A stretch of DNA of 40,444 nucleotides from Nemertoderma westbladi (taxonomy: Eukaryota > Animalia > Xenacoelomorpha), in NCBI GenBank assembly GCA_032718475.1, contig JAUCBJ010000694.1, positions 1 through 40,444 of the forward strand, in the 5' to 3' direction. This document shows, piece by piece, positions 4,273-39,512 of the stretch (positions are counted from its first letter, which is position 1; every line of letters starts with the position of its first letter). A program made the translations under genes and the position numbers. The notes under the pieces were generated by a model. It was given only the letters and a program-made list of their open reading frames with translations. It was not told where the DNA came from and made no database searches.

Positions 4273-4379
4273 CCATTTCTTGAATAAATAGACCTAATAG
4301 TAATAAATATTGTTGGCAAATACATTTATATTACTAATATAATAATTAAGGATAAATACTCCTAATACTAATATAATTG

Positions 4380-8329: not shown

Positions 8330-8914
8330 ACTTGCCGAATACTATAACCATTATCTCGGATTCCATTACCAACGGACGGATTACAAAGAAAAAAGATGAA
8401 TCGTTGGTATTAAAATGTTCTGTTGATGAATTCAATGTGGATCCATCTTGGTCCTGGTATGTTGATGGTATTAAAGATGTTACTGAACCATCTTTATCAA
8501 CATATAGAATAGACCCTTTAGGCGCCGACGATGGTGGTGATTATAAGTGCGAGTTTACCGGTCGTTACAGCAACGGTGAGGAAGAGAGTATCGAAAGTCC
8601 AACGATACCGGTAATTGTACAATATTGTGATCTGCGACTGGAAGTTTCTGGTACTTCTTATACTCTAAACACTTCTAAACTAATCATAAGAAATATGACA
8701 GACCATAATGACCCAATAGAAGTAAAGTGGATTCCAGATAACTGCAATATATATGTTGGTTATATTTGGAGTGGCGACTTCGTAACCGGTGGAGATGAAG
8801 TTAGGAATATCGAAATAAATAGATCTTCAGGGAATTACACAACTACAGCCGAATATAGGTTTTATGATTCATCAACTATTACAGAGTCATTCACTATTGA
8901 GTTAATAGTTCAGT
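8330..8914 (+). CDS. Internal coding exon of an Ig-superfamily (nephrin/sidestep-like) cell-surface protein; one Ig domain plus a degenerate Ig-like domain
   Basis: LKC…WSWY…DDGGDYKC Ig signature. Acceptor ttccAG at 8328-8329 (phase 1; an alternative in-frame AG ends at 8307). Donor CAGT|GTAAGT at 8915. Confidence 0.85.
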
Positions 8915-10153
8915 GTAAGTAACAATAAACTACTGTAAATATTACCCTCCATCACTGTTAGTAGAACAGGAGTCATTCACTATTGAGTTAATAGTTCAGT
9001 GTAAGTAACAATAAACTACTGTAAATATTACCGTCCATCACTGTTAGTAGAACAGGAGTCATTCACTATTGAGTTAATAGTTCAGTGTAAGTAACAATAA
9101 ACTACTGTAAATATTACCCTCCATCACTGTTAGTAGAACAGGAGTCATTCACTATTGAGTTAATAGTTCAGTGTAAGTAACAATAAACTACTGTAAATAT
9201 TACCCTCCATCACTGTTAGTAGAACAGGAGTCATTCACTATTGAGTTAATAGTTCAGCGTAAGTAACAATAAACTACTGTAAATATTACCCTCCATCACT
9301 GTTAGTAGAACAGGAGTCATTCACTATTGAGTTAATAGTCCAGTGTAAGTAACAATAAACTACTGTAAATATTACCCTCCATCACTGTTAGTAGAACAGG
9401 TGTCATTCACTATTGAGTTAATAGTTCAGTGTAAGTAACAATAAACTACTGTAAATATTACCCTCCATCACTGTTAGTAGAACAGGAGTCATTCACTATT
9501 GAGTTAATAGTTCAGCGTAAGTAACAATAAACTACTGTAAATATTACCCTCCATCACTGTTAGTAGAACAGGAGTCATTCACTATTGAGTTAATAGTCCA
9601 GTGTAAGTAACAATAAACTACTGTAAATATTACCCTCCATCACTGTTAGTAGAACAGGTGTCATTCACTATTGAGTTAATAGTTCAGTGTAAGTAACAAT
9701 AAACTACTGTAAATATTACCCTCCATCACTGTTAGTAGAACAGGAGTCATTCACTATTGAGTTAATAGTTCAGTGTAAGTAACAATAAACTACTGTAAAT
9801 ATTACCCTCCATCACTGTTAGTAGAACAGGAGTCATTCACTATTGAGTTAATAGTCCAGTGTAAGTAACAATAAACTACTGTAAATATTACCCTCCATCA
9901 CTGTTAGTAGAACAGGTGTCATTCACTATTGAGTTAATAGTTCAGTGTAAGTAACAATAAACTACTGTAAATATTACCCTCCATCACTGTTAGTAGAACA
10001 GGAGTCATTCACTATTGAGTTAATAGTTCAGTGTAAGTAACAATAAACTACTGTAAATATTACCCTCCATCACTGTTAGTAGAACAGGAGTCATTCACTA
10101 TTGAGTTAATAGTTCAGTGTAAGTAACAATAAATATTACCCTCCATCACTGTT

Positions 10154-11247
10154 TTTATTTATTTATTTATTTATTTAAAACTCGACATTAAAATATGTGA
10201 AATACACATAACATAGAAACATACATACAGAACAAAGAATACACAAAAGGTCGAGGGAGGGAAACTGCCCAGGCTCAAGGCACTTACGGGAGTTTGGGTA
10301 CTATAAAGTAAACATAAAATATACTGTAATGCACATACAGTACACATTACAAATTGCTATAATATTTTAAATTTCTAATAAAATTGAGACTTATAAAAAG
10401 AAAACGAGACGAAAAACTAAAACAATAAAAAAAAATGACAAAAAAGATATTTGTCACTGTTGTGCTAAAAATAATGGATTGCCAGGGGGTCGTGTAAAAT
10501 TAAAGTGTTCCAAAAAGTCGATCGCCTGCAACTTGCGTGAAAATATGTTCAGGTTACAAGAATCAACTACTGAAGAAGGGAGATTATTCCATATTCTGAC
10601 TGCACGAGATGAGAAAGAATGTTTGCTGATATCTAAACGACACCTAGGTACGTAAAGTTTCCTACTGTTGCCACGAAGACCAGCTCGGGGAGCTTGAGAG
10701 AAATAATTATCAAAGTCAAGATCAACAAGACCTTGTGTAATTTTGTAAACCATTTTTAGGTCGAATATCATTCGACGCACTTCTAAAGGTTGTAGGAAAA
10801 GCAATTCGAGGCGGTCCATGTAGCTAGAGTAGGGTAACTTACAGCGCATAAACAGACGACGAGTAAAGTAGCGTTGAACACCCTCAATCATGTCTATGCT
10901 GCGTTTTGTATGTGGAGACCAGACAGGCGCGCAATATTCTACAAGTGGCCGAGCTATGGCTTTATAAGCTATTATTAAAGCTTGACGGTTACTAGTTACG
11001 ATGCTCCTGAATAACATATTGATAACTTTGTAAGCTTTTGCTGTTTGGTCTCTACAATAAAGATCAAATTTTAGATCGGATGAAATTGTTAGGCCCAGGT
11101 CCTTACAGTGTGTATCAGAGGTGAGCACAGACGGATTGAGAGTGTATTCGCGCTTCGCATTGGATGAGCCAACATAAATAACAATACATTTATGGGTTGC
11201 AATAGAGAGCTGCCATTCGTTCGCCCATGCCTCCAGCTTGCTGAGTG
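10154..11247 (-). mobile_element. 5'-truncated CR1-like LINE, copy 1 (RT C-terminus + 3' UTR + (TAAA)n tail)
   Basis: Motifs WQLSIA..KC, KDLG, RPLVEYCAPVWSP, EGVQRYFTR, LRGN..KL, FSSRAVRIWNNLP. Flanked by CTGTT repeats. Confidence 0.92.
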
Positions 11248-13431
11248 CTGTTAGTATAGAACAGGAGTCATTCACTATTGAGTTAATAGTTCAGTGTAAG
11301 TAACAATAAACTAATGTAAATATTACCCTCCATCACAGTTAGTAGAACAGGAGTCATTCACTATTGAGTTAATAGTTCAGTGTAAGTAACAATAAACTAC
11401 TGTAAATATTACCCTCCATCACTGTTAGTAGAACAGGAGTCATTCACTATTGAGTTAATAGTTCAGTGTAAGTAACAATAAACTAATGTAAATATTACCC
11501 TCCATCACAGTTAGTAGAACAGGAGTCATTCACTATTGAGTTAATAGTTCAGTGTAAGTAACAATAAACTACTGTAAATATTACCCTCCATCACTGTTAG
11601 TAGAACAGGAGTCATTCACTATTGAGTTAATAGTTCAGTGTAAGTAACAATAAACTACTGTAAATATTACCTTACATCACTGTTAGTAGAACAGGAGTCA
11701 TTCACTATTGAGTTAATATTTCAGTGTAAGTAACAATAAACTACTGTAAATATTACCCTCCATCACTGTTAGTAGAACAGGAGTCATTCACTATTGAGTT
11801 AATAGTTCAGTGTAAGTAACAATAAACTACTGTAAATATTACCTTACATCACTGTTAGTAGAACAGGAGTCATTCACTATTGAGTTAATAGTTCAGTGTA
11901 AGTATCAATAAACTACTGTAAATATTACCCTCCATCACTGTTAGTAGAACAGGAGTCATTCACTATTGAGTTAATAGTTCAGTGTAAGTAACAATAAACT
12001 ACTGTAAATATTACCCTCCATCACCGTTAGTAGAACAGGAGTCATTCACTATTGAGTTAATAGTTCAGTGTAAGTAACAATAAACTACTGTAAATATTAC
12101 CTTACATCACTGTTAGTAGAACAGGAGTCATTCACTATTGAGTTAATATTTCAGTGTAAGTAACAATAAATTACTGTAAATATTACCCTCCATCACTGTT
12201 AGTAGAACAGGAGTCATTCACTATTGAGTTAATAGTTCAGTGTAAGTGACAATAAACTACTGTAAATATTACCTTACATCACTGTTAGTAGAACAGGAGT
12301 CATTCACTATTGAGTTAATATTTCAGTGTAAGTAACAATAAACTACTGTAAATATTACCCTCCATCACTGTTAGTAGAACAGGAGTCATTCACTATTGAG
12401 TTAATAGTTCAGTGTAAGTGACAATAAACTACTGTAAATATTACCTTACATCACTGTTAGTAGAACAGGAGTCATTCACTATTGAGTTAATAGTTCAGTG
12501 TAAGTAACAATAAACTACTGTAAATATTACCCTCCATCACTGTTAGTAGAACAGGAGTCATTCACTATTGAGTTAATAGTTCAGTGTAAGTAACAATAAA
12601 CTACTGTAAATATTACCCTCCATCACTGTTAGTAGAACAGGAGTCATTCACTATTGAGTTAATAGTTCAGTGTAAGTAACAATAAACTACTGTAAATATT
12701 ACCCTCCATCACTGTTAGTAGAACAGGAGTCATTCACAATTGAGTTAATAGTTCAGTGTAAGTGACAATAAACTACTGTAAATATTACCCTCTATCACTG
12801 TTAGTAGAACAGGAGTCATTCACTATTGAGTTAATAGTTCAGTGTAAGTGACAATAAACTACTGTAAATATTACCTTAGTTAGTTTAGTTTATTGACATA
12901 ATTAAGTTCCACAAGCGACTGATGAAAGAAAGTGACAGAAAAATACAAACAGGTAACATAACAATATATGTAAGGAAGACACAACATTGATACAAACAAA
13001 TACAGTACATTTGTAAGCAGTCATAAAAACAATAACAAGAACAATGTGACAAACTATAGCATGCAGCAGACCACTAGGGAACGAGGACAATATGTGTATG
13101 ATTCATAAGTAATAATAATTAATCGATTAACAATAATGATAAACTAATGATATGCAAGCGGGATCAATGACAAGACACAAAATACAGATTCAAACGGACA
13201 CGGTAGAAAATGCGATGTAATTAATTATAATTGTTATCAACAGTCATACCCAATAACTAATTGATTAACACTTAATTTGTCCAAAAAGAAGCCAGTCAGG
13301 GCGGTATCAAAAAAAAGAAAATATATATATAGTAAGTACGTACGTAATGTAAAATAAATCAAATAAATAAATAAATAAATAATGTAAATAGAAATAGCAC
13401 AAACAACTTGATGGCATACTTTGTAGCTTAT

Positions 13432-13455
13432 GGGGGGGGGGGGGGGGGGGGGGGG
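13432..13455 (+). repeat. G24 homopolymer (poly-C on the LINE sense strand, just after the ORF2 stop)
   Basis: Read directly from the sequence. Confidence 0.9.
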
Positions 13456-13459
13456 TGTA

Positions 13460-16400
13460 CTACTCTAAAATGATAAGAGCAGCATGCAAGAAGTTGCAGC
13501 AATCATGCAGATGTTTATCCGAGAAGAAACCCTCTATTGATGTAAACGATAGATTGCTATGTGTGTCACGTAGGGTGGCTAGTGACTGGCACTCACATAT
13601 AATATGTATTTCGGTTTGTATCGAACCGCACTTACACATCCTTAATTCGGCTGGCAGACGCGACCAACGACCAGTTTCCACTGCTAGGTGCGTAGACATT
13701 AGCCTAAATCTAGACCAAGACAGTCTCGCAGCTTCCGAAAGTCCTAAAATTCTAGAATTATACAATGCGTGTGAAGTTAGTGTTGGGTTCAAAGAACGGT
13801 ACACGCTGCGGCGGGTAGTGGTACTACAATTAATGTGATTTACGATGGCCTCACGGTCTATCAAAACACAATTCCGGTCTAATGAGTCCAACTGCATGGT
13901 AATAGCTTTACCCATTCCGCTGTTTGTACCTCTCACAAGGTCTAGTGCAAAGAATAATGGGCCGTGTAGGTCGGGGTGAGCTAACATTGCCTTCAGAAAC
14001 TTGCGTTGCCGTGTTTCAATCAGAGTCTTTGGTGAAGGGCGACCTGTCTCAATTAACAATATATCATGACAGGTCTGGCTGCGGACAACAATCGCAGACT
14101 TGAGCATACTGAAGTATTGCGATGAAGTTGGGGTAATGTTTGCGCCTAGCCAAGTCTCGCAGCTATAAAAGATTGCTGAAGTCACAGCTGCATCAAAAAC
14201 TAAAAGTTTAACCCATAGAGGGCTAATGGAATGTTTATTAAGGAAGGCGTGGTATTTAGATACATGTTTAGTTTTTTCCTTTGCATGTAGTACAACAGAT
14301 TGGTTGATACCCCCGGCTTCACTGATTGATGCGCCTAAGTATATGTAGGACTTTGAATTCTTTACAATAATGTTAGAGATATTGGATGAAACAACGAGAT
14401 CGACTTTATCGTGTGTACTGCCGTTGATGACCATGAACTTAGTCTTCGAAAGATTTATAGACATGTTGAAGTCCTCACAAAATTTAAGAAGGATATTCAG
14501 TTTCTCAAGAGCTCGTACACGAGAAGTTGCTAACAAGGCCGAATCATCCATTAGAAGAAGACAATGAAGAGCCTTCAGGAATCCGTCATCAGTACATTGC
14601 TTCAGTCGTGTGATCAGAGGATTTATATAGAACGCAAACAATCTACAACTACCGGGTGCACCCTGCAGAACACCGCAAATACTTTGTATAAGTGAGGATC
14701 CTATCACACTTACTGTAGATCTATATAATGCCATAAGCGCCCTTAGCATAACACCGCCACAACCCATGGATTTAAGTAACTGAAATAATTTATGGCGGGA
14801 GACTCGATCATAGGCAGTGGCAAAATCTACAAAGATTATGAACAGTTTACACCTCTTGAAAGTGGCATAGTTAATCAATAAGTGGAGAGTTAAAATATGT
14901 TCCTCGCATCGGCGTTTTGATTGGGCACCAGCTTGCTCAATATCTGGTGCGCACCATTGAGAAAGGCGCTGACAGAGAATCCAGTCATATAATTTTGCGA
15001 TCGCATTCAGGATGGAAATACCACGATAATTAGTGCAAATTATACGTGACCCACGTTTGAAAACAGCCACCAGGCGGGACTGACACCAAGATGTGGGGAA
15101 AGTGGAGCCAAGGAATATTGAATTAAACAAAGATAGAAGAAACAATAACCAACTATAAGGTAGGAATTTGAGAATTCCTGGGGAAACACCATCCGGCCCT
15201 GCAGCTTTGTTAGGCTTCAATGAATTAATTCCGACTGAAACTTCATTGATGTTTATTGGCGAATCAAGCAATGGGATAAATGGACAGTCATGAGTGAGGA
15301 CAGGATCATCCAATGTAGATGCCGGGTCAGTGCACAACAGTTTCTCAAAATGTTCTGCAAATTCTATATCAGTCGGTTTATTATCGCTGTGGGAGGACGA
15401 TGTACTAGGTTCGAGACCACCCTTCCAGTTTATTCGGTTCCAAATAGTGCGCTCATTGCAGCTACAGGCTAGTTCATTCCATACCTGGTAGGGTTGACTG
15501 AAAGCATTACCTGAGAAATGGACAGGAATACCTTTACTGGTGGAAACACATGCAGAACTAGCAGCGGAATAAATTGCAGCTACAAAGGCTTCAGATGCAA
15601 TAGTAATATCTTGGGCAATTGTGTGCTGCATGTTTGGTTCCATGACACTGAGCGACGAACGAAATATAGTCGGCACCAATTGGCGTGGTTTTATGGGTTT
15701 CCTACATGAAGGCTTAGGGGCTTTTTCACAAAATTCAGAATAACTACCAAGCCAAAGTGAGCGAGCCAGTAAATGTGCTGCAGTAGGTACATTATCAAGT
15801 TTCACATTCAAATAAATGGCATTATGGTCAGAGGGCAACCTCTGATCAACTACACCAAAAGCAGTGATGTTACTAATAAAGTTAGTGCTGACTGCAGCAC
15901 GGTCAAGCTCAGAAATATGTTTTCCTTTCCTATGGTATGTTAAGGCACCACCAAACATAATATTGCCGAAACACCCATAACTAATGTTCAATAGATCACA
16001 ATCAGTAAGTAGTTGGCAAAAACGCTTGCCATTACTGTTCACTGTTAAATCGTGGGGATTTCTGTTCCTAAAATCGGCACCACTGGGTAGTTTAACTACA
16101 TTGGTTGAAAGTAAATTCCCAACCCGTGCATTAAAATCACCCAAAAGTATAACAGAACGGCTGCCACTGGTATCAAATATGTGTGACTGAATATCTGCCC
16201 ATACAAAGGGATCATAATAACGTGAATCAGTTGGTGCAATGTATGAGCATGCAAAATCTATGGATGGAAAATCCAATAAAGTAAACCAAATTACTTCATT
16301 TGTATCTGTACAGAACTCTTTAATTTTTAATCTGTTTTGGATCAGTACTGCAACACCACCCCTATCACTATTAGGGCTAGGGTTGTGTAAAATAGTAAAA

Positions 16401-16588
16401 CCTGGTACACAAAAACGGTAACCGGCCTTTGTTTCTTGTAAAAATATTATATTATAATTACTAAAAAGCCTGAAAACAGTTTGGCATAGGAATTTCGTAC
16501 CGAGCCCATTACAGTTCCAAGATAATATATTTAAAACGTCAGTTCGCTTGTGGCCAGTTAAAAAATCGGCATAAATCTGTCGATAATA
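13460..16588 (-). CDS. LINE ORF2: APE endonuclease + reverse transcriptase + C-terminal zinc knuckle; uninterrupted
   Basis: The frame is open upstream of the ORF-track start (ILSWNCNG, FLQETK, RGGVAVL). Then GDFNAR, SDHNA, KAAGPDG, NYRGISI, FVDFATAYD, GVLQG, LLLMDD, YLG. No ATG precedes the endonuclease. Confidence 0.9.
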   Translation of the reverse strand, partial: YYRQIYADFLTGHKRTDVLNILSWNCNGLGTKFLCQTVFRLFSNYNIIFLQETKAGYRFCVPGFTILHNPSPNSDRGGVAVLIQNRLKIKEFCTDTNEVIWFTLLDFPSIDFACSYIAPTDSRYYDPFVWADIQSHIFDTSGSRSVILLGDFNARVGNLLSTNVVKLPSGADFRNRNPHDLTVNSNGKRFCQLLTDCDLLNISYGCFGNIMFGGALTYHRKGKHISELDRAAVSTNFISNITAFGVVDQRLPSDHNAIYLNVKLDNVPTAAHLLARSLWLGSYSEFCEKAPKPSCRKPIKPRQLVPTIFRSSLSVMEPNMQHTIAQDITIASEAFVAAIYSAASSACVSTSKGIPVHFSGNAFSQPYQVWNELACSCNERTIWNRINWKGGLEPSTSSSHSDNKPTDIEFAEHFEKLLCTDPASTLDDPVLTHDCPFIPLLDSPININEVSVGINSLKPNKAAGPDGVSPGILKFLPYSWLLFLLSLFNSIFLGSTFPTSWCQSRLVAVFKRGSRIICTNYRGISILNAIAKLYDWILCQRLSQWCAPDIEQAGAQSKRRCEEHILTLHLLINYATFKRCKLFIIFVDFATAYDRVSRHKLFQLLKSMGCGGVMLRALMALYRSTVSVIGSSLIQSICGVLQGAPGSCRLFAFYINPLITRLKQCTDDGFLKALHCLLLMDDSALLATSRVRALEKLNILLKFCEDFNMSINLSKTKFMVINGSTHDKVDLVVSSNISNIIVKNSKSYIYLGASISEAGGINQSVVLHAKEKTKHVSKYHAFLNKHSISPLWVKLLVFDAAVTSAIFYSCETWLGANITPTSSQYFSMLKSAIVVRSQTCHDILLIETGRPSPKTLIETRQRKFLKAMLAHPDLHGPLFFALDLVRGTNSGMGKAITMQLDSLDRNCVLIDREAIVNHINCSTTTRRSVYRSLNPTLTSHALYNSRILGLSEAARLSWSRFRLMSTHLAVETGRWSRLPAELRMCKCGSIQTEIHIICECQSLATLRDTHSNLSFTSIEGFFSDKHLHDCCNFLHAALIILE

Positions 16589-19034
16589 TCATTGTCTCTA
16601 TAGATAACCCTCTCCTTGAAATCGAACTTAATAAAATGACCGGCATTTTCAGGTTTAAGTTTCTCAACTGCCGCAACTTTACGAAGACGCCCCAACTCTT
16701 TGCTAATTGCGGGGTGTACGTCCGCTTTCAGGTAGATTCTGTTAAAGGGGTCAGAAGCATCTTTTAATTTCTTTGCTGCAGAGAGAATGGCACCGCGATG
16801 TGGTGCAGAGGACTTCAGAGAGATCAGCAAGGGGCGACTGCGGGGGGGTTCCGCTACGGGTATCGCATCATTATTATGTTCTGGATTCTTTTCCTTACCC
16901 AGACGACGAACAGAGAAACTCTCAATGTCCAACTGCACTTCAAGGTGGTCAAATATCACCGCGCATTTCCTAGCGTCGTCCCTCTCACCTTCGAAGTTCC
17001 CCTCTGGAAGACCAGTACAAATAATCGTCCGGCTCCGTATGTCACGGTCAATAGACTCACTGAAAGCCATGTGGTTATCGAGACTCGCACGTAGATCAGC
17101 ATTCTCCTTTTCCAAAACATCAACTCGTTTCTCCAGCACAACCACGCGGTGGTTAACGGTTTCAGATATGATGGCGCGAAGGTCATCCACGGATAGGCTC
17201 GTTAGTGGTGTGCCCCCGGATGGTGGACTGGTAGTACCACCACCTGTGCTATTGCGAGGATCAGCAGTGTTGCGAAGTGGTATGGCATTAGAGCCTGAAA
17301 CGGGATTCTGATTCTGCCTCCTAAAACTACTGGGCAGAATAGGCCGGTCGTTTGGCCTGGGTATGTTCACATCGGTGTGATTCCGTCTTGCTGGGCCAGC
17401 AGACGCCTGCCCAGTTAAAAAAAACTATGTGCATCATATGTGGCTGCATAAATATTTTACACAAATGTGGCATACATCGAAATGAAACAGTCCAGACACA
17501 TATGCAGTGCATATGTCTAAGCATATATGCTCCAAAAATTATAAACATAGTGGTTGCATATATGCATGTGCTGTGCATCCCAGCAAACAATGTACGCTGA
17601 GACAGTCTATCCAATCACAGGGCGTTCCTAGTGCATGCTGTGATTGAGAGAGAGGGGGTGGGGGTTAGCCTACCTTATCTTATGTCTATGTCTACACCCT
17701 ACGGCCCTACACTTAGTATACTCTATACATACTGAGATCTAATCGCTTGAGTACATATGAAAATATATAATTCATTAAGACTGAGGAGTATCCTATATAA
17801 CTTTCAGCGACGATCAAAAAATATTATTTCGAATATTAAAATCGATATAATTGATTTTATTTTCAACTATATTAGATAATTCATTAGTATGAATTTACTA
17901 AAAATAGTACATTGTAGAACTGTTTAATATATAATTATAAACCATACTTCTATCCAATAATTTAAGTTTTTTGCAATTTAAGTCGGGGGTGGAGGGAGGG
18001 GTGGGGAGAAGGGGGGTGGTTGGTGTTTTGCGCTAGTTGAATTTTTGATCGTTTCATTTTTTATTTATGTTAACAGTATAAAATGCTAAAATACAGGATA
18101 TAATCGTAAAATGTATCCCTTGAGAGGGTTACATTATTTTTTCCTTTGATTGAGTTTAGAAAATATATCATCATCAAAAGAAAATATATCAATATGAAAA
18201 GTATTCTAATTGCGAAATGCTTTGTTGATAGGCTTATGTTGTAAATAATTTGAATTATCAAACAATTGTAAAAACGACATTGGGATAGCTTTAATTATGG
18301 TAATCTCATTTTAGGTACTCTACTATCGGAATGGACGCAAAACGTAATGTGTCGGCAGGATGTACTGTAGCTATATATTGACGTAGCTATTTCAATATCC
18401 ACTTTTAGCTATTTCAATATCGACCTTTACCTATCTCACTACAGTATATTGACTTAGCTATCTTAATATATTGACGTAGCTATCTATGGCAAAATGTGAT
18501 GATTTTCATCCGCATAAAAGTGTTTGAGTCAAATAAACACCCCGTTAGCATAAAATGAGAGAAGGCGTGGGAAAATAGACACAGAGATATGTACAGAAGA
18601 ACATAAGCTGTGACTGGCATATGTTTTGCACAAATTCCACACATATTCTCACCATAAATTTTCTGTCATGTTTACAGTAGCACATGTTAATCTTATGGGT
18701 ATCTGATATGTCAGTGCACAAATTATTGTGTGTCAAAGGCATATGTTTTAAATATATCAATCACAATTACATGAAACTGAGATTTAATGTGTGCCTTTAC
18801 CACATTCTCTGCTTATTTGCTGAAATTATGTTGCTGCATATATTTTTGTTGGGCATAAGTTTCCCACATGACACATGTAATTCACATATGATACATATTA
18901 CCATTTTTAACTGGGTGGCTGATCCCATTCTGGTTGGTTAGGCAGTCGTTGTTAGGCGCGGCGAAGCAGGTATCGCAAAGGAACCCGCGCTTTAATCGTG
19001 GCTGGAACGCCTTACAAGTGACACAGTATCCCAT
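16558..19034 (-). pseudogene. LINE ORF1 (322 codons when reconstructed), split by a DNA transposon at 17410-18915
   Basis: Joining 19034-18918 to 17409-16558 gives an open frame, MGYCVTCKAFQPRLKRGFLCDTC…GIS|QASAGP…DVNIPRP…RFMPIF*. Confidence 0.85.
17410..18915. mobile_element. Non-autonomous TIR DNA transposon (CMC/EnSpm-like, CCCAG ends)
   Basis: TIRs CCCAGTTAAAAA…TTTTTAACTGGG with a 2-bp TG duplication (17408-17409, 18916-18917) and CATATG-rich subterminal repeats. No transposase. Its removal restores ORF1. Confidence 0.85.
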
Positions 19035-26097: not shown

Positions 26098-26774
26098 GGT
26101 ACTACGTACCCTCTAACTCTTACTCTAACTAGCGGTACTACGTACCCTCTCACTCTAACTAACTATTGGTACTACGTACCTACTAACTCTCTAACTATCG
26201 GTACTACGTACCCTCTAACTCTAACTAACTATTGGTACTACGTACCTACTAACTCTCTAACTATCGGTACTACGTACCCTCTAACTCTAACTCTAACTAG
26301 GTACTACGTACCTACTAACTCTCTAACTATCGGTACTACGTACCCTCTAACTCTAACTAACTAGGTACTACGTACCTACTAACTCTCTAACTATCGGTAC
26401 TACGTACCCTCTAACTCTAACTCTAACTAGGTACTACGTACCTACTAACTCTAACTAGGTACTACGTACCTTCTAACTCTAACTCTAACTAGGTACTACG
26501 TACCTACTAACTCTCTAACTAGGTACTACGTACCCTCTAACTCTAACTCTAACTAGGTACTACGTACCTACTAACTCTCTAACTAGGTACTACGTACCCT
26601 CTAACTCTAACTCTAACTAGGTACTACGTACCTACTGACTCTCTAACTAACTCTAGGTACTACGTACCTACTAACTCTCTAACTCTAGGTACTACGTACC
26701 TACTAACTCTAACTCTAACTCTCTAATGGTACTACGTACCTACTAACTCTAACTCTAACTAGGTACTACGTACC
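26098..26774. repeat. Array of 21 GGTACTACGTACC palindromic motifs with CTAA/CTCTAA spacers
   Basis: Counted directly; spacing 28-40 bp; two further copies at 25731 and 25800. Confidence 0.92.
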
Positions 26775-26856
26775 ACCCTTTAACTAACTAACTAACTAAC
26801 TAACTAACTACCTAACTTCTACCTACTCTATTATTTAATTATTTTCTTATTTTTAA

Positions 26857-29800
26857 TTAAATAATTATTTTATATTTTGTGCGTGGGAAGGGCGTCTCGC
26901 CCTCATTCCCACCCCCCTCAGTCCAAAACTTTGGACGACTAAAAACTCTCACGTGCCCCTTCTTCCGGTAGGCACTCTCCTGCTGCCCTCCTATACGTCC
27001 TCTAACTCTTCGCCACACTCTCTTCGGTGCTACCTTTGCTGGCCTCCCCCTTCGTATGTGCGCTGGCATTAAGGCCCTCGACGACCCCCGCTCGTCCCTC
27101 AGTATACGCGGTGTCTGCCCGTGCAATGCCCCCTCGCACTGTGTCAGCCGTGCGTGTGTATGCAACACGCCTCCTTCTACTTTCCCGACTCCCTTATGTT
27201 TGCTAATGGGCTTCTCTGCCCCTGGTTTAGTCCTTTCATATCCTCTCCCTTTCCAACACTCTCCGGATCTGTGTCCTTTTACCACACATCGATGACATAG
27301 TCCGTTTGCGTCTGTGTAGGCTACACGATCTCGTTTGGGCAACGCTTGCCAGTACTTGCAACTCCTGGTCTTATGGGTTCCGTCCCGATGTAATTGACAT
27401 TGGAATCCTGGATTATAGCGTTTCCTGTATAGTCCTTCACGTATCGCGCTTAGGTTTATATGTACCGATTTAATGTTTTGGTTGTCTAGACTCGGCCTAC
27501 TGGGTATATTGGGATTGTGTTTATTATATATAGTGTTATTTTCTTTCTGTCCCTGCCACGGTGTTGCCCTGCTCCCAGCTAACTGTGGACTAGCAGTCCC
27601 CTGTACGGCCGCGTGTGGTGGTGACTGTCCGCACGACCTGCTCTCGTCCAGGGAGTTCGATGTTCTCGCTCCTATCGGGGTACATTGTCGATATTGTGAT
27701 GGGGGAATGTCACCCTGTCCCCCCCCAGCCGGTATGTTTGGTACTGGGGTTGATGTTAATACATTGGGGCCCATACGTCTATCTCCAATAACTCCCCCCT
27801 CCCCTGGATATATGTTATGTCCCTGTGTATTATAGTCATGCTGCTGTACCGATATAGGCCTATCTACCTCTCGCCTACCTACCGGTATTTACTCCGCGAC
27901 TTCCGGGTTTAATCCCGTCGTTCGCGCTACCCCATCGCCTACTCTATCTCTCCCAGCATGGCCTATAATAGTATGTGCAGTAAGACCTACAGTATGCCCT
28001 ACAGTCTGCATGTGTTGCTCGGGATCGAAGTTTATTCTTCTCGAATAATCCTCCCCGCGGCTACCGTATTCTCGATCGGTAGGTATATTCCGTCGGAAAG
28101 TTTCTCTTCGACCCCCCTCTCCACTGTTTTCATCTTCGTACCGGTACATCGCGTACCCCTCTCTCGGCGTGTAATGCGTCTCACCGGATCGCATCCCTCC
28201 GGGGCGACGGCAATCTCCCGGAGTCCGACCCCATTGACTCTCCGTTCTCATCTCGACTATCGACGGCTCGCTGTCCGTCCTCGCTCTTCTATCTTTTGCG
28301 GCGATACTTCTACTACTCTCTTCCTCTCTTCTCCTATCAGTGGAATATTCCCGCTCACGAGATCTCTCGTCGACCTCCCGGTTAAACCCCACTGTTCTTC
28401 TTTCCTCCTCTGATCGGGCTCGACGCTCCGTCTGCCCTCCCGCGACGTCAACCTGTCTTTCTCTGCTCGATCGCACGTCGCTGGGGATACTCGCAATCCC
28501 CCTATTACTTTCCGTCGCCGGTTGTTGCGGTTTACCTTGTTCGGCCCTCGCATTGTCCGCTGACGGCTGTGGGACACTCTCTGCCCCCCCCCTCTCGCCG
28601 CTAACTTTCTGTTGTGGGGTGCTCGTAGCCCCCCCCCCCCCCACTCGCTACATCTAACTTCGCTACCTCTCGCCCCGCTACTATATATCTCTCTAGTCGA
28701 CACATCAACCCTACCACAGTCGGGTCTATTCACCCCCGCCTCTCCCTCTGCTATTGCGTGGCCTTCCAGGCCCTCTGCTCCCTGTCTACCAACTACGTGG
28801 CCTACCAGGCCCTCTGCTCCCTGTCTACTAACTACGCGGCCTACCAGGCCCTCTGCTCCCTGTCTACTAACTACGTGGCCCGACGTGTTTACATTAATAG
28901 CACCCATATTGGAAACGGAATTAATTTGCTCATTTGAAACAAAATCATTTGTATTATTCTGCGCGACTACGTTATCTGAATTATTTTGTAAATTCGGGCT
29001 AAGATCATTATTTGAATTATTCGAATTATTCTGTGTAATTGCGTTATTTAAGTTATTTTGTAGGTCCGAATTCGAGTTATTATTTTGATTATTTGAATTA
29101 TTTTGCGTAACTACATCAATATTAGGATTATTTTCTACATTAACACTGGGATTGTTCTGATTTAAATTTAAATTACTACCACCAGGCAAAGTATTTCCTG
29201 TAATAAAGGTTTGATTAGCGTTATCCCATACGGTACTATTAATATCAACAACGTCTACTGTACCATTATTATTACCCCCCCCCGCCCGTACGGTCGCACC
29301 AGTTTTGGGTCTGTCGTGCGGTCCCTGTCAGTGGAGTATTAATAAATATATCTACGGCCCTCGGCTCCTCAAAAATACTCGAGCCGGCCCCAGTTTCAGA
29401 CGGCGGTCCCACTCGCACGTATTCCAACTCGTGCTCCCCTCTAATTATATTTCCCGCAAACTCACTCTGCCGTTTCTCTAATTCCTTGCGCTCCTTTTTA
29501 CTCTCTGCCACTATCCCCTCACGCTCCTGGGTGTCCTTGATGGCCGAGTCTGCGGCACTCTTAATGCTCTCCCTTCGTCTCGCCCCACGCTCTTTGCGTT
29601 CCTTTTCCTTTCTCGTCTCATATTCCTTGCGTTCCGCCTCACGCTCCTTGCGTTCCCTTTCCTCCCTTGCCTCACGCTCCTTGCGTTCCTTTTCCATTCC
29701 CGCCTCACGCTCCTTGCGTTCCGCCTCACGCTCCTTGCGTTCCCTTTCCTCTCTCGCTTCACGCTCCCTACACTCCCTTTCCTCTATCTCATCATACTCC

Positions 29801-30864
29801 CTTAGGCTTTTCAGAGCCCTTTCGGCCCTTTCTCCGGTTTCTCTAAGCAATACCGTTTCCCTCTCAAACCGCACTCTTCCCTCCTCTAGCCGTTCCTTCA
29901 TTTCTCTCTGACCTTGCTCTGCCATGCTGAGACGGTATGCGGCTCCTATTTTTCTCACCGCTCTTTCTTTCGCGGAGGATGTAGCAGACTTATCGGTTAC
30001 GACGGACTTCCCCCGCCTTCCCGACCTACTAACTTTCTCCCACTTCCCGGAGCTTTCTCCGACCGACGAGGCCGAATCCTCGGTGTTAACCTCGGATTCG
30101 CCCCCTTCGAGTCCCTTCCAACCCACCGGTTTTACTCCCCGGGCATCGACCAAGTATGGCCCTATGTACACTGGCGCTACACTAGGTTCCATACTCCCAC
30201 ACTCCCATAGTTCAAACAGTTCGCCGGCTATCCTTTCTGCTCTCTCCCCGGCCAGTTCTCTCTGCCCAAAACGTATTAGGTAATTTAAGTGCCTATCCGA
30301 CTCACCTAGTCGCTTTCTCAGTCTCACCTCGTCTACCTTCGCCCCTTCCTTCTTGGCGTCGTTTATCAGCTTCCGGGTCGCGTTGTAGGCCCGTCGAAGT
30401 CGCTCAGAAACCCCGACGTCCTCGTCGCCGACCTCTCCTCCGTCCCTCCGGGTCCGACGTCGTACCGGCGGCTCCACCGTCGCCGTTCCGGTGGGCCGTC
30501 CGTCGCCCTCGGCCTGTAGCTGGCCGGCGACATCGGTACCGATCTATCCTCCGTCTCTTCGTGTCCGGCGTCGCACCGTCGGCCCCACCGGTTCGGTGGG
30601 CCGCTCGTCGCCCTCGGCCGGTAGCTGGCCGGCGACATCGGCGCGCCGTCCTCCGTCCCGTGTCGACTCATCTCCTTCTCCCTCCGTCTCGCTCTCTTTC
30701 TCTCTTGGCTCGACTTCGGGTTCCAGGCCCTCCTCGTCCTGTGCTTCCGGTTCGCCCGTTATCGATGGCTCCGGGGTCGTGGGCCTGTATCGTTTGGTCG
30801 CGGCCTCGCGGATCGTTAGGTCTTCGTCCGGGGTCCGCGGTGGTGTCTCGCCCGACTCACTCAT
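26857..30864 (-). pseudogene. Disrupted gag-like ORF (~1330 codons)
   Basis: ORFs 30544-30864, 29272-30477, 27889-28644 and 26857-27774 share one frame. There are single in-frame stops at 30544 and 27889, and compensating shifts at C-runs 29275-29283 and 28629-28642. The C-terminus carries CQLH…H….C…LCHRCVVKGHRSGEC. Confidence 0.75.
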
Positions 30865-30979
30865 CTCGTCTGGTGGCTGATGGTTCGGCTAGCTAGGGTG
30901 GAGTTCTTTGTGTTTAACTGGGGCGGCAGCTCGTCTTTAGTTACTGAGTTTAGCTGGGGAAGCAACACCTTTTAGTTAC

Positions 30980-31516
30980 TGTGACGGGATCCAGGAGGGA
31001 TCCCGATTTATCCGATGTGGTATTTAGTCCACGCGTCCCCGCCGTGTATAAGAGTGAAATAAAGATAACTGAGTTCTGAAGTTCGGTGTATAATAAGAGG
31101 TTATAGGATATAGATATATTGTGAATGTGTACAAGGCGGGATACGGTAACTAAAGTCCCGTGATCCCCTAACTAAACTAATTGGCTGTACCCTACGCTAG
31201 CACTGCTGCACTGAGATAACTGAATCACTGATTAATAGGTTATTGGTTATATTGCACGGTGGCCTTACTGCTACTCAATCGATGCCATTCCCCCCTCTGA
31301 TTGGTTAATACCCTTGTTGGCGCCCCGTGGAGTATTCCCGTTCACTCCACCTGTTCTCTCTGGGTTAGGGGTTTGGCCCCTGACCCTCTATTGTGTGCTT
31401 CCTTCCCACTCTTATTGGGATGGCACGAGTTGGTTAATTGCCCAATCTCGTGGCTCCCAATATTGCTTATCGGCTAATAACTTTATGGGGTGTTGGCGGG
31501 ATTGAATAAGCTAACA
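30980..31516 (-). repeat. 5' LTR
   Basis: Direct repeat of 24250-24786; no mismatch seen by eye. Confidence 0.95.
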
Positions 31517-34500
31517 ACTATTGAGTTAATAGTTCAGCGTAAGTAACAATAAACTACTGTAAATATTACCCTCCATCACTGTTAGTAGAACAGGAGTCAT
31601 TCACTATTGAGTTAATAGTTCAGTGTAAGTAACAATAAACTACTGTAAATATTACTCTCCATCACTGTTAGTAGAACAGGAGTCATTCACTATTGAGTTA
31701 ATAGTTCAGCGTAAGTAACAATAAACTACTGTAAATATTACCCTCCATCACTGTTAGTAGAACAGGAGTCATTCACTATTGAGTTAATAGTTCAGTGTAA
31801 GTAACAATAAACTACTGTAAATATTACCCTCCATCACTGTTAGTAGAACAGGAGTCATTCACTATTGAGTTAATAGTTCAGTGTAAATAACAATAAACTA
31901 CTGTAAATATTACCCTCCATCACTGTTAGTAGAACATGAGTCATTTACAATTGAGTTAATAGTTCAGTGTAAGTAACAATTAGCTACTGTAAATATTAAC
32001 CTCCATCACTGTTAGTAGAACAGGAGTCATTCACTATTGAGTTAATAGTTCAGTGTAAATAACAATAAACTACTGTAAATATTACCCTCCATCACTGTTA
32101 GTAGAACATGAGTCATTTACAATTGAGTTAATAGTTCAGTGTAAGTAACAATTAGCTACTGTAAATATTAACCTCCATCACTGTTAGTAGAACAGGAGTC
32201 ATTCACAATTGAGTTAATAGTTCAGTGTAAGTAACAATAAACTACTGTAAATATTACCCTCCATCACTGTTAGTAGAACAGGAGTCATTCACAATTGAGT
32301 TAATAGTTCAGTGTAAGTAACAATAAACTACTGTAAATATTACCCTACATCACTGTTAGTAGAACAGGAGTCATTCACTATTGAGTTAATAGTTCAGTGT
32401 AAGTAACAATAAACTACTGTAAATATTACCCTCCATCACTGTTAGTAGAACAGGAATCATTCACTATTGAGTTAATAGTTCAGTGTAAGTAACAATAAAC
32501 TACTTTAAATATTACCCTCCATCACTGTTAGTAGAACAGGAGTCATTCACTATTGAGTTAATAGTTCAGCGTAAGTAACAATAAACTACTGTAAATATTA
32601 CCCTCCATCACTGTTAGTAGAACAGGAGTCATTCACTATTGAGTTAATAGTTCAGTGTAAGTAACAATAAACTACTGTAAATATTACTCTCCATCACTGT
32701 TAGTAGAACAGGAGTCATTCACTATTGAGTTAATAGTTCAGCGTAAGTAACAATAAACTACTGTAAATATTACCCTCCATCACTGTTAGTAGAACAGGAG
32801 TCATTCACTATTGAGTTAATAGTTCAGTGTAAGTAACAATAAACTACTGTAAATATTACCCTCCATCACTGTTAGTAGAACAGGAGTCATTCACTATTGA
32901 GTTAATAGTTCAGTGTAAATAACAATAAACTACTGTAAATATTACCCTCCATCACTGTTAGTAGAACATGAGTCATGTACAATTGAGTTAATAGTTCAGT
33001 GTAAGTAACAATTAGCTACTGTAAATATTAACCTCCATCACTGTTAGTAGAACAGGAGTCATTCACAATTGAGTTAATAGTTCAGTGTAAGTAACAATAA
33101 ACTACTGTAAATATTAACCTCCATCACTGTTAGTAGAACAGGAGTCATTCACTATTGAGTTAATAGTTCAGTGTAAGTAACAATAAACTACTGTAAATAT
33201 TAACCTCCATCACTGTTAGTAGAACAGGAGTCATTCACTATTGAGTTAATAGTCCAGTGTAAGTAACAATAAACTACTGTAAATATTACCCTCCATCACT
33301 GTTAGTAGAACAGGAGTCATTCACTATTGAGTTAATAGTTCAGTGTAAGTAACAATAAACTACTGTAAATATTAACCTGCATCACTGTTAGTAGAACAGG
33401 AGTCATTCACTATTGAGTTAATAGTTCAGTGTAAGTAACAATAAACTACTGTAAATATTAACCTCCATCACTGTTAGTAGAACAGGAGTCATTCACTATT
33501 GAGTTAATAGTTCAGTGTAAGTAACAATAAACTACTGTAAATATTACTCTCCATCACTGTTAGTAGAACAGGAGTCATTCACTATTGAGTTAATAGTTCA
33601 GTGTAAGTAACAATAAACTACTGTAAATATTACCCTACATCACTGTTAGTAGAACAGGAGTCATTCACTATTGAGTTAATAGTTCAGTGTAAGTAACAAT
33701 AAACTACTGTAAATATTACCCTCCATCACTGTTAGTAGAACAGGAGTCATTCACTATTGAGTTAATAGTTCAATGTAAGTAACAATAAACTACTGTAAAT
33801 ATTACCCTCCATCACTGTTAGTAGAACAGGAGTCATTCACTATTGAGTTAATAGTTCAATGTAAGTAACAATAAACTACTGTAAATATTACCCTCCATCA
33901 CTGTTAGTAGAACAGGAGTCATTCACTATTGAGTTAATAGTTCAGTGTAAGTAACAATAAACTACTGTAAATATTACCCTCCATCACTGTTAGTAGAACA
34001 GGAGTCATTCACTATTGAGTTAATAGTTCAGTGTAAGTAACAATAAACTACTGTAAATATTACCCTCCATCACTGTTAGTAGAACAGGAGTCATTCAGTA
34101 TTGAGTTAATAGTTCAGTGTAAGTAACAATAAACTACTGTAAATATTACCCTCCATCACTGTTAGTAGAACAGGAGTCATTCACAATTGAGTTAATAGTT
34201 CAGTGTAAGTAACAATAAACTACTGTAAATATTACCCTCCATCACTGTTAGTAGAACAGGAGTCATTCACAATTGAGTTAATAGTTCAGTGTAAGTAACA
34301 ATAAACTACTGTAAATATTACCCTCCATCACTGTTAGTAGAACAGGAGTCATTCACTATTGAGTTAATAGTTCAGTGTAAGTAACAATAAACTACTGTAA
34401 ATATTACCCTCCATCACTGTTAGTAGAACAGGAGTCATTCACAATTGAGTTAATAGTTCAGTGTAAGTAACAATAAACTACTGTAAATATTACTCTCCAT

Positions 34501-35357
34501 CACTGTTAGTAGAACAGGAGTCATTCACTATTGAGTTAATAGTTCAGCGTAAGTAACAATAAACTACTGTAAATATTACCCTCCATCACTGTTAGTAGAA
34601 CAGGAGTCATTCACTATTGAGTTAATAGTTCAGTGTAAGTAACAATAAACTACTGTAAATATTACCCTCCATCACTGTTAGTAGAACAGGAGTCATTCAC
34701 TATTGAGTTAATAGTTCAGTGTAAATAACAATAAACTACTGTAAATATTAACCTCCATCACTGTTAGTAGAACAGGAGTCATTCACTATTGAGTTAATAG
34801 TTCAGTGTAAGTAACAATAAACTACTGTAAATATTAACCTCCATCACTGTTAGTAGAACAGGAGTCATTCACTATTGAGTTAATAGTTCAGTGTAAGTAA
34901 CAATAAACTACTGTAAATATTAACCTGCATCACTGTTAGTAGAAGAGGAGTCATTCACTATTGAGTTAATAGTTCAGTGTAAGTAACAATAAACTACTGT
35001 AAATATTACCCTCCATCACTGTTAGTAGAACAGGAGTCATTCACTATTGAGTTAATAGTTCAGTGTAAGTAACAATAAACTACTGTAAATATTACCCTAC
35101 ATCACTGTTAGTAGAACAGGAGTCATTCACTATTGAGTTAATAGTTCAGTGTAAGTAACAATAAACTACTGTAAATATTACCCTCCATCACTGTTAGTAG
35201 AACAGGAGTCATTCACTATTGAGTTAATAGTTCAGTGTAAGTAACAATAAACTACTGTAAATATTACCCTCCATCACTGTTAGTAGAACAGGAGTCATTC
35301 ACTATTGAGTTAATAGTTCAGTGTAAGTAACAATAAATATTACCCTCCATCACTGTT

Positions 35358-36453
35358 TTTATTTATTTATTTATTTATTTAAAACTCGACATTAAAATAT
35401 GTGAAATACACATAACATAGAAACATACATACAGAACAAAGAATACACAAAAGGTCGAGGGAGGGAAACTGCCCAGGCTCAAGGCACTTACGGGAGTTTG
35501 GGTACTATAAAGTAAACATAAAATATACTGTAATGCACATACAGTACACATTACAAATTGCTATAATATTTTAAATTTCTAATAAAATTGAGACTTATAA
35601 AAAGAAAACGAGACGAAAAACTAAAACAATAAAAAAAAAAATGACAAAAAAGATATTTGTCACTGTTGTGCTAAAAATAATGGATTGCCAGGGGGTCGTG
35701 TAAAATTAAAGTGTTCCAAAAAGTCGATCGCCTGCAACTTGCGTGAAAATATGTTCAGGTTACAAGAATCAACTACTGAAGAAGGGAGATTATTCCATAT
35801 TCTGACTGCACGAGATGAGAAAGAATGTTTGCTGATATCTAAACGACACCTAGGTACGTAAAGTTTCCTACTGTTGCCACGAAGACCAGCTCGGGGAGCT
35901 TGAGAGAAATAATTATCAAAGTCAAGATCAACAAGACCTTGTGTAATTTTGTAAACCATTTTTAGGTCGAATATCATTCGACGCACTTCTAAAGGTTGTA
36001 GGAAAAGCAGTTCGAGGCGGTCCATGTAGCTAGAGTAAGGTAACTTACAGCGCATAAACAGACGACGAGTAAAGTAGCGTTGAACACCCTCAATCATGTC
36101 TATGCTGCGTTTTGTATGTGGAGACCAGACAGGCGCGCAATATTCTACAAGAGGCCGAGCTATGGCTTTATAAGCTATTATTAAAGCTTGACGGTTACTA
36201 GTTACGATGCTCCTGAATAACATATTGATAACTTTGTAAGCTTTTGCTGTTTGGTCTCTACAATAAAGATCGAATTTTAGATCGGATGAAATTGTTAGGC
36301 CCAGGTCCTTACAGTGTGTATCAGAGGTGAGCACAGACGGATTGAGAGTGTATTCGCGCTTCGCATTGGATGAGCCAACATAAATAACAATACATTTATG
36401 GGTTGCAATAGAGAGCTGCCATTCGTTCGCCCATGCCTCCAGCTTGCTGAGTG
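35358..36453 (-). mobile_element. 5'-truncated CR1-like LINE, copy 2 (same breakpoints as copy 1)
   Basis: Near-identical to 10154-11247, with the same CTGTT junctions and the same 10-bp deletion in the preceding satellite unit. Confidence 0.92.
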
Positions 36454-39400
36454 CTGTTAGTAGAACAGGAGTCATTCACTATTGAGTTAATAGTTCAGTG
36501 TAAGTAACAATAAACTACTGTAAACATTACCCTCCATCACTGTTAGTAGAACAGGAGTCATTCACTATTGAGTTAATAGTTCAGTGTAAGTAACAATAAA
36601 CTACTGTAAATATTACCCTCCATCACTGTTAGTAGAACAGGAGTCATTCACTATTGAGTTAATAGTTCAGTGTAAGTAACAATAAACTACTGTAAATATT
36701 ACCCTCCATCACTGTTAGTAGAACAGGAGTCATTCACTATTGAGTTAATAGTTCAGTGTAAGTAACAATAAACTACTGTAAATATTACCCTACATCACTG
36801 TTAGTAGAACAGGAGTCATTCACTATTGAGTTAATAGTTCAGTGTAAGTAACAATAAACTACTGTAAATATTACCCTCCATCACTGTTAGTAGAACAGGA
36901 GTCATTCACTATTGAGTTAATAGTTCAGTGTAAGTGACAATAAACTACTGTAAATATTACCTTACATCACTGTTAGTAGAACAGGAGTCATTCACTATTG
37001 AGTTAATAGTTCAGTGTAAGTAACAATAAACTACTGTAAATATTACCCTCCATCACTGTTAGTAGAACAGGAGTCATTCACTATTGAGTTAATAGTTCAG
37101 TGTAAGTAACAATAAACTACTGTAAATATTACCCTCCATCACTGTTAGTAGAACAGGAGTCATTCACTATTGAGTTAATAGTTCAGTGTAAGTATCAATA
37201 AACTACTGTAAATATTACCCTCCATCACCGTTAGTAGAACAGGAGTCATTCACTATTGAGTTAATAGTTCTGTGTAAGTAACAATAAACTACTGTAAATA
37301 TTACTCTCCATCACTGTTAGTAGAACAGGAGTCATTCACTATTGAGTTAATAGTTCAGTGTAAGTAACAATAAACTACTGTAAATATTACTCTCCATCAC
37401 TGTTAGTAGAACAGGAGTCATTCACTATTGAGTTAATAGTTCAGTGTAAGTAACAATAAACTGCTGTAAATATTACCCTCCATCACTGTTAGTAGAACAG
37501 GAGTCATTCACTATTGAGTTAATAGTTCAATGTAAGTAACAATAAACTACTGTAAATATTACCCTCCATCACTGTTAGTAGAACAGGAGTCATTCACTAT
37601 TGAATTAATAGTTCAGTGTAAGTAACAATAAACTACAGTAAATATTACCCTCCATCACTGTTAGTAGAACAGGAGTCATTCACTATTGAGTTAATAGTTC
37701 AGTGTAAGTAACAATAAACTACTGTAAATATTACCCTCCATCACTGTTAGTAGAACAGGAGTCATTCACTATTGAGTTAATAGTTCAGTGTAAGTAACAA
37801 TAAACTACTGTAAATATTACCCTCCATCACTGTTAGTAGAACAGGAGTCATTCACTATTGAGTTAATAGTTCAGTGTACGTATCAATAAACTAGTGTAAA
37901 TATTAACCTCCATCACTGTTAGTAGAACAGGAGTCATTCACTATTGAGTTAATAGTTCAGTGTAAGTAACAATAAACTACTGTAAATATTACCCTCCATC
38001 ACTGTTAGTAGAACAGGAGTCATTCACTATTGAGTTAATAGTTCCAGTGTAAGTAACAATAAACTAATGTAAATATTACCCTCCATCACTGTTAGTAGAA
38101 CAGGAGTCATTCACTATTGAATTAATAGTTCAGTGTAAGTAACAATAAACTACAGTAAATATTACCCTCCATCACTGTTAGTAGAACAGGAGTCATTCAC
38201 TATTGAGTTAATAGTTCAGTGTAAGTAACAATAAACTACTGTAAATATTACCCTCCATCACTGTTAGTAGAACAGGAGTCATTCACTATTGAGTTAATAG
38301 TTCAGTGTAAGTAACAATAAACTACTGTAAATATTACCCTCCATCACTGTTAGTAGAACAGGAGTCATTCACTATTGAGTTAATAGTTCAGTGTACGTAT
38401 CAATAAACTAGTGTAAATATTAACCTCCATCACTGTTAGTAGAACAGGAGTCATTCACTATTGAGTTAATAGTTCAGTGTAAGTAACAATAAACTACTGT
38501 AAATATTACCCTCCATCACTGTTAGTAGAACAGGAGTCATTCACTATTGAGTTAATAGTTCAGTGTAAGTAACAATAAACTACTGTAAATATTACCCTCC
38601 ATCACTGTTAGTAGAACAGGAGTCATTCACTATTGAGTTAATAGTTCCAGTGTAAGTAACAATAAACTAATGTAAATATTACCCTCCATCACTGTTAGTA
38701 GAACATGAGTCATTCACTATTGAGTTAATAGTTCAGTGTAAGTAACAATAAACTACTGTAAATATTACCCTCCATCACTGTTAGTAGAACAGGAGTCATT
38801 CACTATTGAGTTAATAGTTCAGTGTAAGTAAGAATAAACTACTGTAAATATTACCCTATATGTATAATTCCATGTCAACGCTTCCACACAATATATTTAC
38901 AATTTTCATTTTTTTATTTAATTTTCAATTTTCATTGATGGGATTGGCGTAAGTTACCCAACCCCCGTCTCGTTTTGTTAAAACTTAATGTTTTGTGCAA
39001 CTTTGAGACGGTGAACTGAACTGCACAACCCAGACCAGGCATGTATAAGGATTCAATACAAACAAAACAAACAATACAAACTTCAGGTCATTAATTATGA
39101 ATCATATTAATGATATAATCTACATCAATACGACCAATAACGCAGTAACTGTTCCAGAATCTATAATAATAAGGGAATTGTTGTGGGGCGAGTGACGCGG
39201 TGAATCAAATATACAATGTAAATATGGAGAGCATTATCATATTGTCCCATTTACATTGTATATTCCAGAATCTGGCTACTTTAAGATTTTGCTGCTTGAT
39301 TGCAACATGATCAATGTCTAGATAAAATATCAAGCTCGAAGCTCGCAATGTTATAATTTACCATTTCCTTATTCAGTCGTGTTTGGACTATTGATAGCTT

Positions 39401-39512
39401 CCCGACTCTGATTACAAGGTTCCACCTTGGTGTAGTCGTGTAGTGGTTGCATTGAATTCACATCTCCCACATAATAAATATAATTACAATACAAACATAT
39501 TTTTTTCTTTAG

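Follow-up and report, generated by a model that had tools for sequence, protein, structure and literature searches.

A transposon-split array of 166 5′ splice donors in one intron of a predicted Ig/FN3 gene of Nemertoderma westbladi, probably a passenger

How does a transcript find its proper 5′ splice site when the intron repeats that site more than a hundred times? The question is raised by contig JAUCBJ010000694.1 of the xenacoelomorph Nemertoderma westbladi (assembly GCA_032718475.1), of which positions 1 to 40,444 of the forward strand, hereafter the window, were analyzed; all coordinates refer to this 40,444-nucleotide (nt) stretch. One intron of a predicted immunoglobulin (Ig)/fibronectin type III (FN3) gene contains an 86-nt repeat, each unit of which bears a 5′ splice donor. 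The original prediction, made from the letters of this DNA, described some 165 tandem consensus donors that had grown out of the gene's own exon/intron junction, and it framed the choice among them as an unexplained puzzle. The explanation that we favor, and hold to be probable though well short of certain, is that an 86-nt piece of exon end and intron start was amplified to 166 copies, was split by transposons, and is carried as a neutral passenger in a gene that likely still splices its first donor to the next exon.

The repeat was detected with Tandem Repeats Finder, after which unit starts were counted. It runs from 8884 to 38857 in five stretches (match 96 to 98%), which unit counting resolved as follows.

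8884-8969, plus strand: unit 1, made of 31 nt of exon end, 34 nt of intron start, and 21 nt of spacer, a sequence shared by 52 of 161 full units, more than any other
8884-10153, plus strand: array block 1, 15 units
11248-12878, plus strand: array block 2, 19 units
19141-24249, plus strand: array block 3, 59 units and the first 14 nt of a split unit
31517-35357, plus strand: array block 4, the remainder of the split unit and 44 units
36454-38857, plus strand: array block 5, 28 units, the last of which stops after +34 of its intron part

The blocks thus hold 165 unit starts, plus one unit divided by a long terminal repeat (LTR) element, and donors occupy 166 positions (159 GTAAGT, five GTAAAT, and two GTACGT, with GT in all 166). 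They measure 1270, 1631, 5109, 3841, and 2404 nt (sum, 14,255 nt) and are separated by insertions of 1094, 6262, 7267, and 1096 nt (sum, 15,719 nt), transposon DNA making up 52% of the array span. The predicted number and end points of the array therefore stood: unit 1 starts at 8884 with the last 31 nt of the exon, the donor follows at 8915, and the array stops mid-unit at 38857. The single tandem run did not, since there are five blocks and four insertions. The consensus character of the donors was borne out in part: positions +1 to +7 on the intron side pair with the 5′ end of U1, whereas the exon side (AGT) does not. Two properties of the unit went beyond the earlier description, namely, several AG dinucleotides per unit and an AATAAA hexamer in most of them. 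The latter occurs 160 times in the blocks, is intact in 155 of 161 full units, and starts 3 nt past the donor hexamer in each unit bearing it. The copied exon end also holds an imperfect palindrome (8894-8910), which predicted folds pair between adjacent units and which may have aided slippage.

The gene around the array was reconstructed from the following features.

8330-8914, plus strand: exon A, 585 nt, phase 1-1, an open frame behind a CAG acceptor that encodes an Ig domain (Pfam Ig_3, E 4.3e-07) and a second, divergent Ig-like domain
8915-8920, plus strand: the first 5′ splice donor (AGT/GTAAGT), likely the authentic one
38858-39512, plus strand: the unique remainder of the intron, with a T-rich tract and a TAG acceptor
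39513-40139, plus strand: exon B, 627 nt, phase 1-1, with Ig-like (Pfam Ig_3, E 4.2e-04, weak) and FN3 (Pfam fn3, E 5.5e-10) domains, followed by a donor (CAG/GTAAGA) at 40140

The intron (8915-39512) is 30,598 nt long, and joining 8914 to 39513 gives one open frame of 403 codons across both exons, with no stop or frameshift. The first donor is the sole one whose direct use leaves the frame open into exon B. Reading through it gives TGT AAG TAA, the stop lying at 8920-8922, and translation of units 2 and 3 confirmed that direct use of any later donor passes this stop in unit 1 and yields a truncated product, as had been predicted. Donor strength, scored by pairing with the U1 5′ end, was −8.0 kcal/mol for the array donor versus −11.0 kcal/mol for the donor of exon B. 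Nor does predicted structure single out the first donor, whose accessibility (0.026) is if anything below that of eight later donors sampled (0.035 to 0.10).

Did the exon give rise to the repeat, or did a repeat supply the end of the exon? An answer came from a segment within exon A.

8593-8625, plus strand: the last 11 residues of domain 1, corresponding within exon A to the copied exon end (8 of the 11 agree with the exon-end peptide)

All eight residues that this segment shares with the exon-end peptide, completed by the Tyr that the 8914-39513 join creates, are specified by different codons, and 17 of 33 nt are the same. A match of this quality anywhere in the protein was reached by none of 5000 peptide shuffles, with the caveat that it had been spotted by eye before testing and that strong similarity is limited to the last strand; over their whole length, domains 1 and 2 gave a borderline result only (45 of 1000 shuffles). 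Since the protein is conserved here while its codons have diverged, we reasoned that the exon end is old coding sequence and was not donated by a repeat. Seven AGs near exon B were also tested; two leave the frame open, and the matching Tyr comes from the one at 39512 alone, a result in favor of the predicted junction. Copies of the unit outside the array were absent from the window, and a 36-nt piece of it had no match among metagenome contigs, which may not include this animal. A local origin from the gene's own exon/intron junction, as first proposed, thereby appears well supported, resting on the match to domain 1 and on the lack of a unit copy elsewhere in the window.

The 21-nt spacer had no source in the exon, in the present intron flank, or elsewhere in the window. 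A candidate copy in the exon ahead of unit 1, a gapped match of 11 of 12 nt, was rejected as not significant, being equaled by 313 of 5000 shuffles and by 63 of 1222 windows. In the simplest reading, the spacer would be former intron sequence (+35 to +55) that was deleted from the last unit. Because these 21 of the 86 nt are neither exon nor present intron flank, the 0.7 kb (689 nt) proposed for the ancestral intron is a lower bound. The proposed growth of more than 40-fold holds up (44-fold, 30,598/689), while the array by itself accounts for about 22-fold. As the insertions outweigh the blocks (15.7 versus 14.3 kb), over half of the growth is transposon DNA.

Inspection of frames and flanks identified the inserted elements.

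10154-11247, minus strand: a 5′-truncated insertion resembling a long interspersed nuclear element (LINE), copy 1, with a 278-codon minus-strand frame, a simple-repeat tail, and a 5-nt target duplication
12879-19140, minus strand: a LINE with an open frame of 1041 residues for endonuclease/reverse transcriptase (open reading frame 2 [ORF2]; Pfam RVT_1, E 1.8e-22; Exo_endo_phos, E 6.4e-08) and a 4-nt target duplication
17410-18915, no strand assigned: a nested element with terminal inverted repeats (33-nt arms showing 79% complementarity) and a target duplication of 2 nt
24250-31516, minus strand: an LTR retroelement with two identical 537-nt LTRs, a 5-nt target duplication, and a gag-like zinc knuckle
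35358-36453, minus strand: the truncated LINE, copy 2, whose end points, target duplication, and adjoining 10-nt unit deletion all equal those of copy 1

Target duplications are present at all of them. Copy 1 of the truncated element had no Pfam match at E 0.01, and from its anatomy we take it to be a LINE. The nested element, located at the 5′ end of the ORF1 frame of the long LINE, is likely a nonautonomous DNA transposon. Gag-like frames and long simple-repeat tracts fill the LTR retroelement, which gave no reverse transcriptase or other Pfam match in the three frames scanned and is likely nonautonomous and recent. The two truncated LINEs differ by four substitutions and one 2-nt indel, with a further 2-nt indel in the flank; their sequences point to a single insertion that was later copied 25 kb within the array.

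Variants were analyzed on the 161 full units, leaving out four partial units and the split one. Of these, 109 differ from unit 1, with a mean divergence from it of 1.3% and a pairwise divergence of 2.5%. Runs of units recur in order: units 73 to 79 equal units 122 to 128, on the other side of the LTR element, and units 87 to 91 equal units 99 to 103. Such ordered, shared variants, together with a LINE copied along with its neighboring deletion, are the usual signs of tandem turnover, and the history of the array appears to fit that process rather than mis-assembly, although the exact copy number may be off. We therefore regard it as extremely improbable that the array is an assembly artifact, which the original prediction had named as a refutation, or that a dispersed repeat was the source of the exon end. 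The identical LTR pair could come from polishing, but units unlike unit 1 are in the majority, their variants are ordered and common to several blocks, the LINE copies differ by four bases, the target duplications are clean, and the exon end matches domain 1 at the protein level.

The same insertions bear on whether the gene is alive. A dying or dead copy could have amassed the array and 15.7 kb of transposons under relaxed selection, or these additions could have crippled its splicing. Five insertions in one intron, one of them with identical LTRs and hence recent, would suit this idea, as would the outcome of the searches for relatives: word searches found none for exon B among 835 longer candidate proteins and none for exon A among 721 longer and 33 near-length proteins, and 49 stretches of metagenome contigs held no relative of exon B. 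Exon B also encodes an Ig domain with Gly in place of the second canonical Cys. Missing word-search matches are common for fast-evolving Ig genes, however, and 403 codons free of stops and frameshifts lie between intact splice sites. Moreover, each of the three independent retro-insertions runs antisense to the gene, the orientation to be expected if the intron is transcribed, although chance would produce it one time in eight. Decay of the gene is thus, in our judgment, distinctly unlikely.

Neighbors of the exons in the Atlas and PDB were contactin-, NCAM-, and titin-type Ig/FN3 proteins at low similarity; the second half of exon A reached a similarity of 0.91 to Ig clusters in the Atlas, which is a lead only. 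A single-sequence fold of exon A was unusable (mean predicted local distance difference test score, 32), and an Rfam scan gave no match at the gathering score. Each exon encodes two domains (8330-8914 and 39513-40139), whereas vertebrate Ig genes commonly have one domain per exon. From 8923 to 8969, the unit's intron part and spacer are stop-free in the frame of the exon and faintly resemble an Ig linker (Tyr-Pro-Pro-Ser), probably by chance. Upstream of exon A, the preceding intron (303-4330 and about 6170-7200) is likewise crowded with LINE remains, including minus-strand endonuclease- and ORF1-like frames, a reverse transcriptase frame at 2286-3365 (Pfam RVT_1), and a decayed plus-strand LINE copy seen by eye. 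On the minus strand, 4380-5081 holds a repetitive frame of 233 codons, acidic and rich in Glu, after which come coiled-coil-like repeats with 27- and 84-nt periods.

Does the array do anything for the gene? The 161 full units contain 47 distinct substitution alleles, and these are spread as length predicts (all p above 0.4): five versus 4.9 expected at donor positions −3 to +6, two versus 3.3 in the donor core, four versus 3.3 in AATAAA, 14 versus 16.9 in the exon part, and 12 versus 11.5 in the spacer. No unit of the 161 has lost its GT, and this too falls short of significance (0 alleles versus 1.1 expected, p 0.63). In this weak test, nothing in the distribution of variants pointed to selection for a U1 platform, a polyadenylation [poly(A)] switch, or a coding role. 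The suggestion that the array binds U1 and so suppresses premature polyadenylation also meets an objection in the hexamers themselves. A platform of this kind would be self-cancelling, adding about as many AATAAA (160) as donors (166). Furthermore, of the 20 sense AATAAA located outside the blocks, 9 have no array donor within 1 kb upstream, and U1 suppression of poly(A) sites has a range of ~1 kb according to the available part of PMC3826338.

A switch to a secreted isoform had been the other proposed function, and it concerns the following feature.

8920-8929, plus strand: in-frame TAA (8920-8922) and then AATAAA (8924-8929), recurring in most units

If the array leaked or were regulated, read-through of the first donor would terminate the protein after two more residues, and cleavage at any of ~160 AATAAA would give a short, probably secreted Ig-only form, whose share would rise with copy number. 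The stop and hexamer recall the composite last exons of soluble receptors, in the portion of PMC3826338 available, and later donors are used somewhat in 6-16 and CBS, according to the introduction of PMC1557585. Unit 1 alone suffices for this geometry, however, so the secreted form leaves the array unexplained, and AATAAA arises in 10 to 13% of shuffled units, within chance, and is unprotected from variants. Each hexamer also sits 3 nt past a donor hexamer, where U1 would be expected to suppress it, judging from the same portion of PMC3826338. The window contains no membrane anchor or signal peptide, so that "secreted" would follow from family resemblance, and it stops 305 nt past exon B. We regard leakage or regulation of this sort as unlikely.

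The AGs of the unit offer still another route, by which units would serve as micro-exons or nested introns.

8960-8961, plus strand: the first spacer AG, whose use (in-silico splicing) would give an in-frame 39-nt micro-exon of 13 residues; intact in 160 of 161 units

Splicing from this AG to the next donor would allow the intron to be removed stepwise, with extra 13-residue strands in some transcripts. It is the first AG at a workable distance past the donor, the frame is kept, and pyrimidine richness before it (0.64) equals that before the real acceptor of exon B. None of the 16 alleles in the 39 nt makes a stop, and "mirage" units of amphioxus have been proposed as able to become exons (PMC3087553, in the part available). 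Nevertheless, 6 of these alleles are synonymous and 10 nonsynonymous, not different from neutral (p 0.10), and one in three random exon lengths is in frame. The implied intron (47 nt) and exon (39 nt) are both short, and the next two AGs give immediate stops. A branch-point scan was uninformative, having no match in the unit and none before the real exon B acceptor. Canonical recursive splicing, moreover, uses an acceptor and a donor juxtaposed inside the intron (AG/GT), and the consensus unit has AG-T-GT instead; among the array blocks, AGGT occurs three times in block 1 and not at all in blocks 2 to 5. Stepwise removal, raised in the original prediction, thus lacks its signal as far as the canonical recursive route is concerned. 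We hold micro-exons or nested introns to be highly improbable. By eye alone, we also saw that joining the first donor to the AG at the unit end (8913-8914 with 8970-8973) would form a new GTGAGT hexamer that ends up 2 bases before the junction, a pseudo-ratchet site in a shifted position, and would break the frame. Recruitment of the whole array as an isoform dial strikes us as very unlikely; in that scheme, every unit would combine a donor and a poly(A) signal with a 39-nt in-frame micro-exon, and copy number would set the balance among full-length, lengthened, and secreted products of a cell-surface Ig/FN3 gene.

We return to the neutral passenger. Its birth would have been a local tandem duplication of the exon/intron junction, followed by growth through unequal exchange or slippage and by loss of the tail of the last unit. 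Transposons would then have gathered in the array and split the copies into five blocks. By analogy with human F7, the first donor would win as the first to be transcribed, pairing with the acceptor of the upstream exon, while the later donors would stay silent; occasional use of one would give a stop-containing RNA. U1 bound a few bases ahead of the AATAAA in each unit would mask it, and the expansion may be tolerated for this reason.

Several points weigh against this account. The published tests, as far as the accessible texts go, involve at most 25 downstream sites, short introns, and mammals and amphioxus; leakage may be greater with 165 competitors spread across 30 kb. In both 6-16 and CBS, splicing also uses two further donors, as the introduction of PMC1557585 relates. 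The Gly at the second canonical Cys position of exon B is unfavorable. Open frames are weak proof of a live gene; by a rough estimate, neutral frames would still be open after 1.3% divergence with a probability of about 18%. With 47 alleles, the selection test has low power.

On the present sequence evidence, then, the locus is a large example and not a new mechanism. It illustrates how intron growth of 40-fold can start from a single duplicated splice junction that creates a transposon landing zone. Clean use of the first donor would extend the first-donor rule, in an invertebrate-type gene, to 165 near-identical competitors across 30 kb. If instead the array leaks, donor and poly(A) use along it would form a natural distance series, in which 109 of 161 units are marked.

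The array belongs to a known kind of repeat, that of F7 and the amphioxus mirages, and is an unusually large one. In repeats of this kind, the first unit lies on a real exon/intron boundary, the donor is reiterated in the intron, and the copies turn over in tandem. Donor choice is accordingly less of a puzzle than was first thought, as junction-spanning minisatellites are already in print. Intron 7 of human F7 holds a 37-bp variable number tandem repeat whose first unit spans the boundary; in minigenes with up to 12 units, the most upstream of the identical donors was used, even with stronger sites downstream, and only perfect-consensus sites competed (PMC1557585, in the parts available). The introduction to that paper lists 6-16 (IFI6), with 25 extra donor sites of which the two nearest are also used; CBS intron 13, with 15 to 20 units and two extra donors used; and LMNB2 (100-bp unit) and PDGF (81-bp unit), in which only the authentic site is used. 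The accessible text of PMC10078293 had nothing on junction-spanning arrays, and our literature search, with most subscription papers and supplements outside its scope, found no published array of more than 25 extra donors, a number that the present one exceeds about six-fold. It resembles F7, 6-16, CBS, LMNB2, and PDGF in that the first unit crosses the boundary and the donor is repeated in the intron, and its 86-nt unit is close in length to those of PDGF and LMNB2. It differs in having 166 donors rather than 5 to 26, in extending over 30 kb split by transposons, and in bearing AATAAA and possible acceptors in most units; donor use is known there, whereas here it is argued from analogy.

Mirage minisatellites of amphioxus (Adh3, globins BflGb6 and BflGb9, TnC, and PGBD5) are likewise invertebrate tandem duplications of an exon/intron boundary, with units of 10 to 160 nt, concerted turnover, and splicing reported as undisturbed (PMC3087553 and PMC3902484, in the portions available). 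Where counted there, units are few (three and six in BflGb6), in contrast to 166 here, and unit 1 of the N. westbladi array is still its commonest unit, a further difference from the mirages. U1-suppressed intronic polyadenylation, finally, produces soluble forms of VEGFR2, other receptor tyrosine kinases, and IgM (PMC3826338, as far as its text was available). Those systems share with unit 1 the order of donor, stop, and poly(A) hexamer in an Ig/FN3 gene. They consist of single sites with demonstrated use, whereas the hexamer just past the donor here is within chance and is a candidate signal only.

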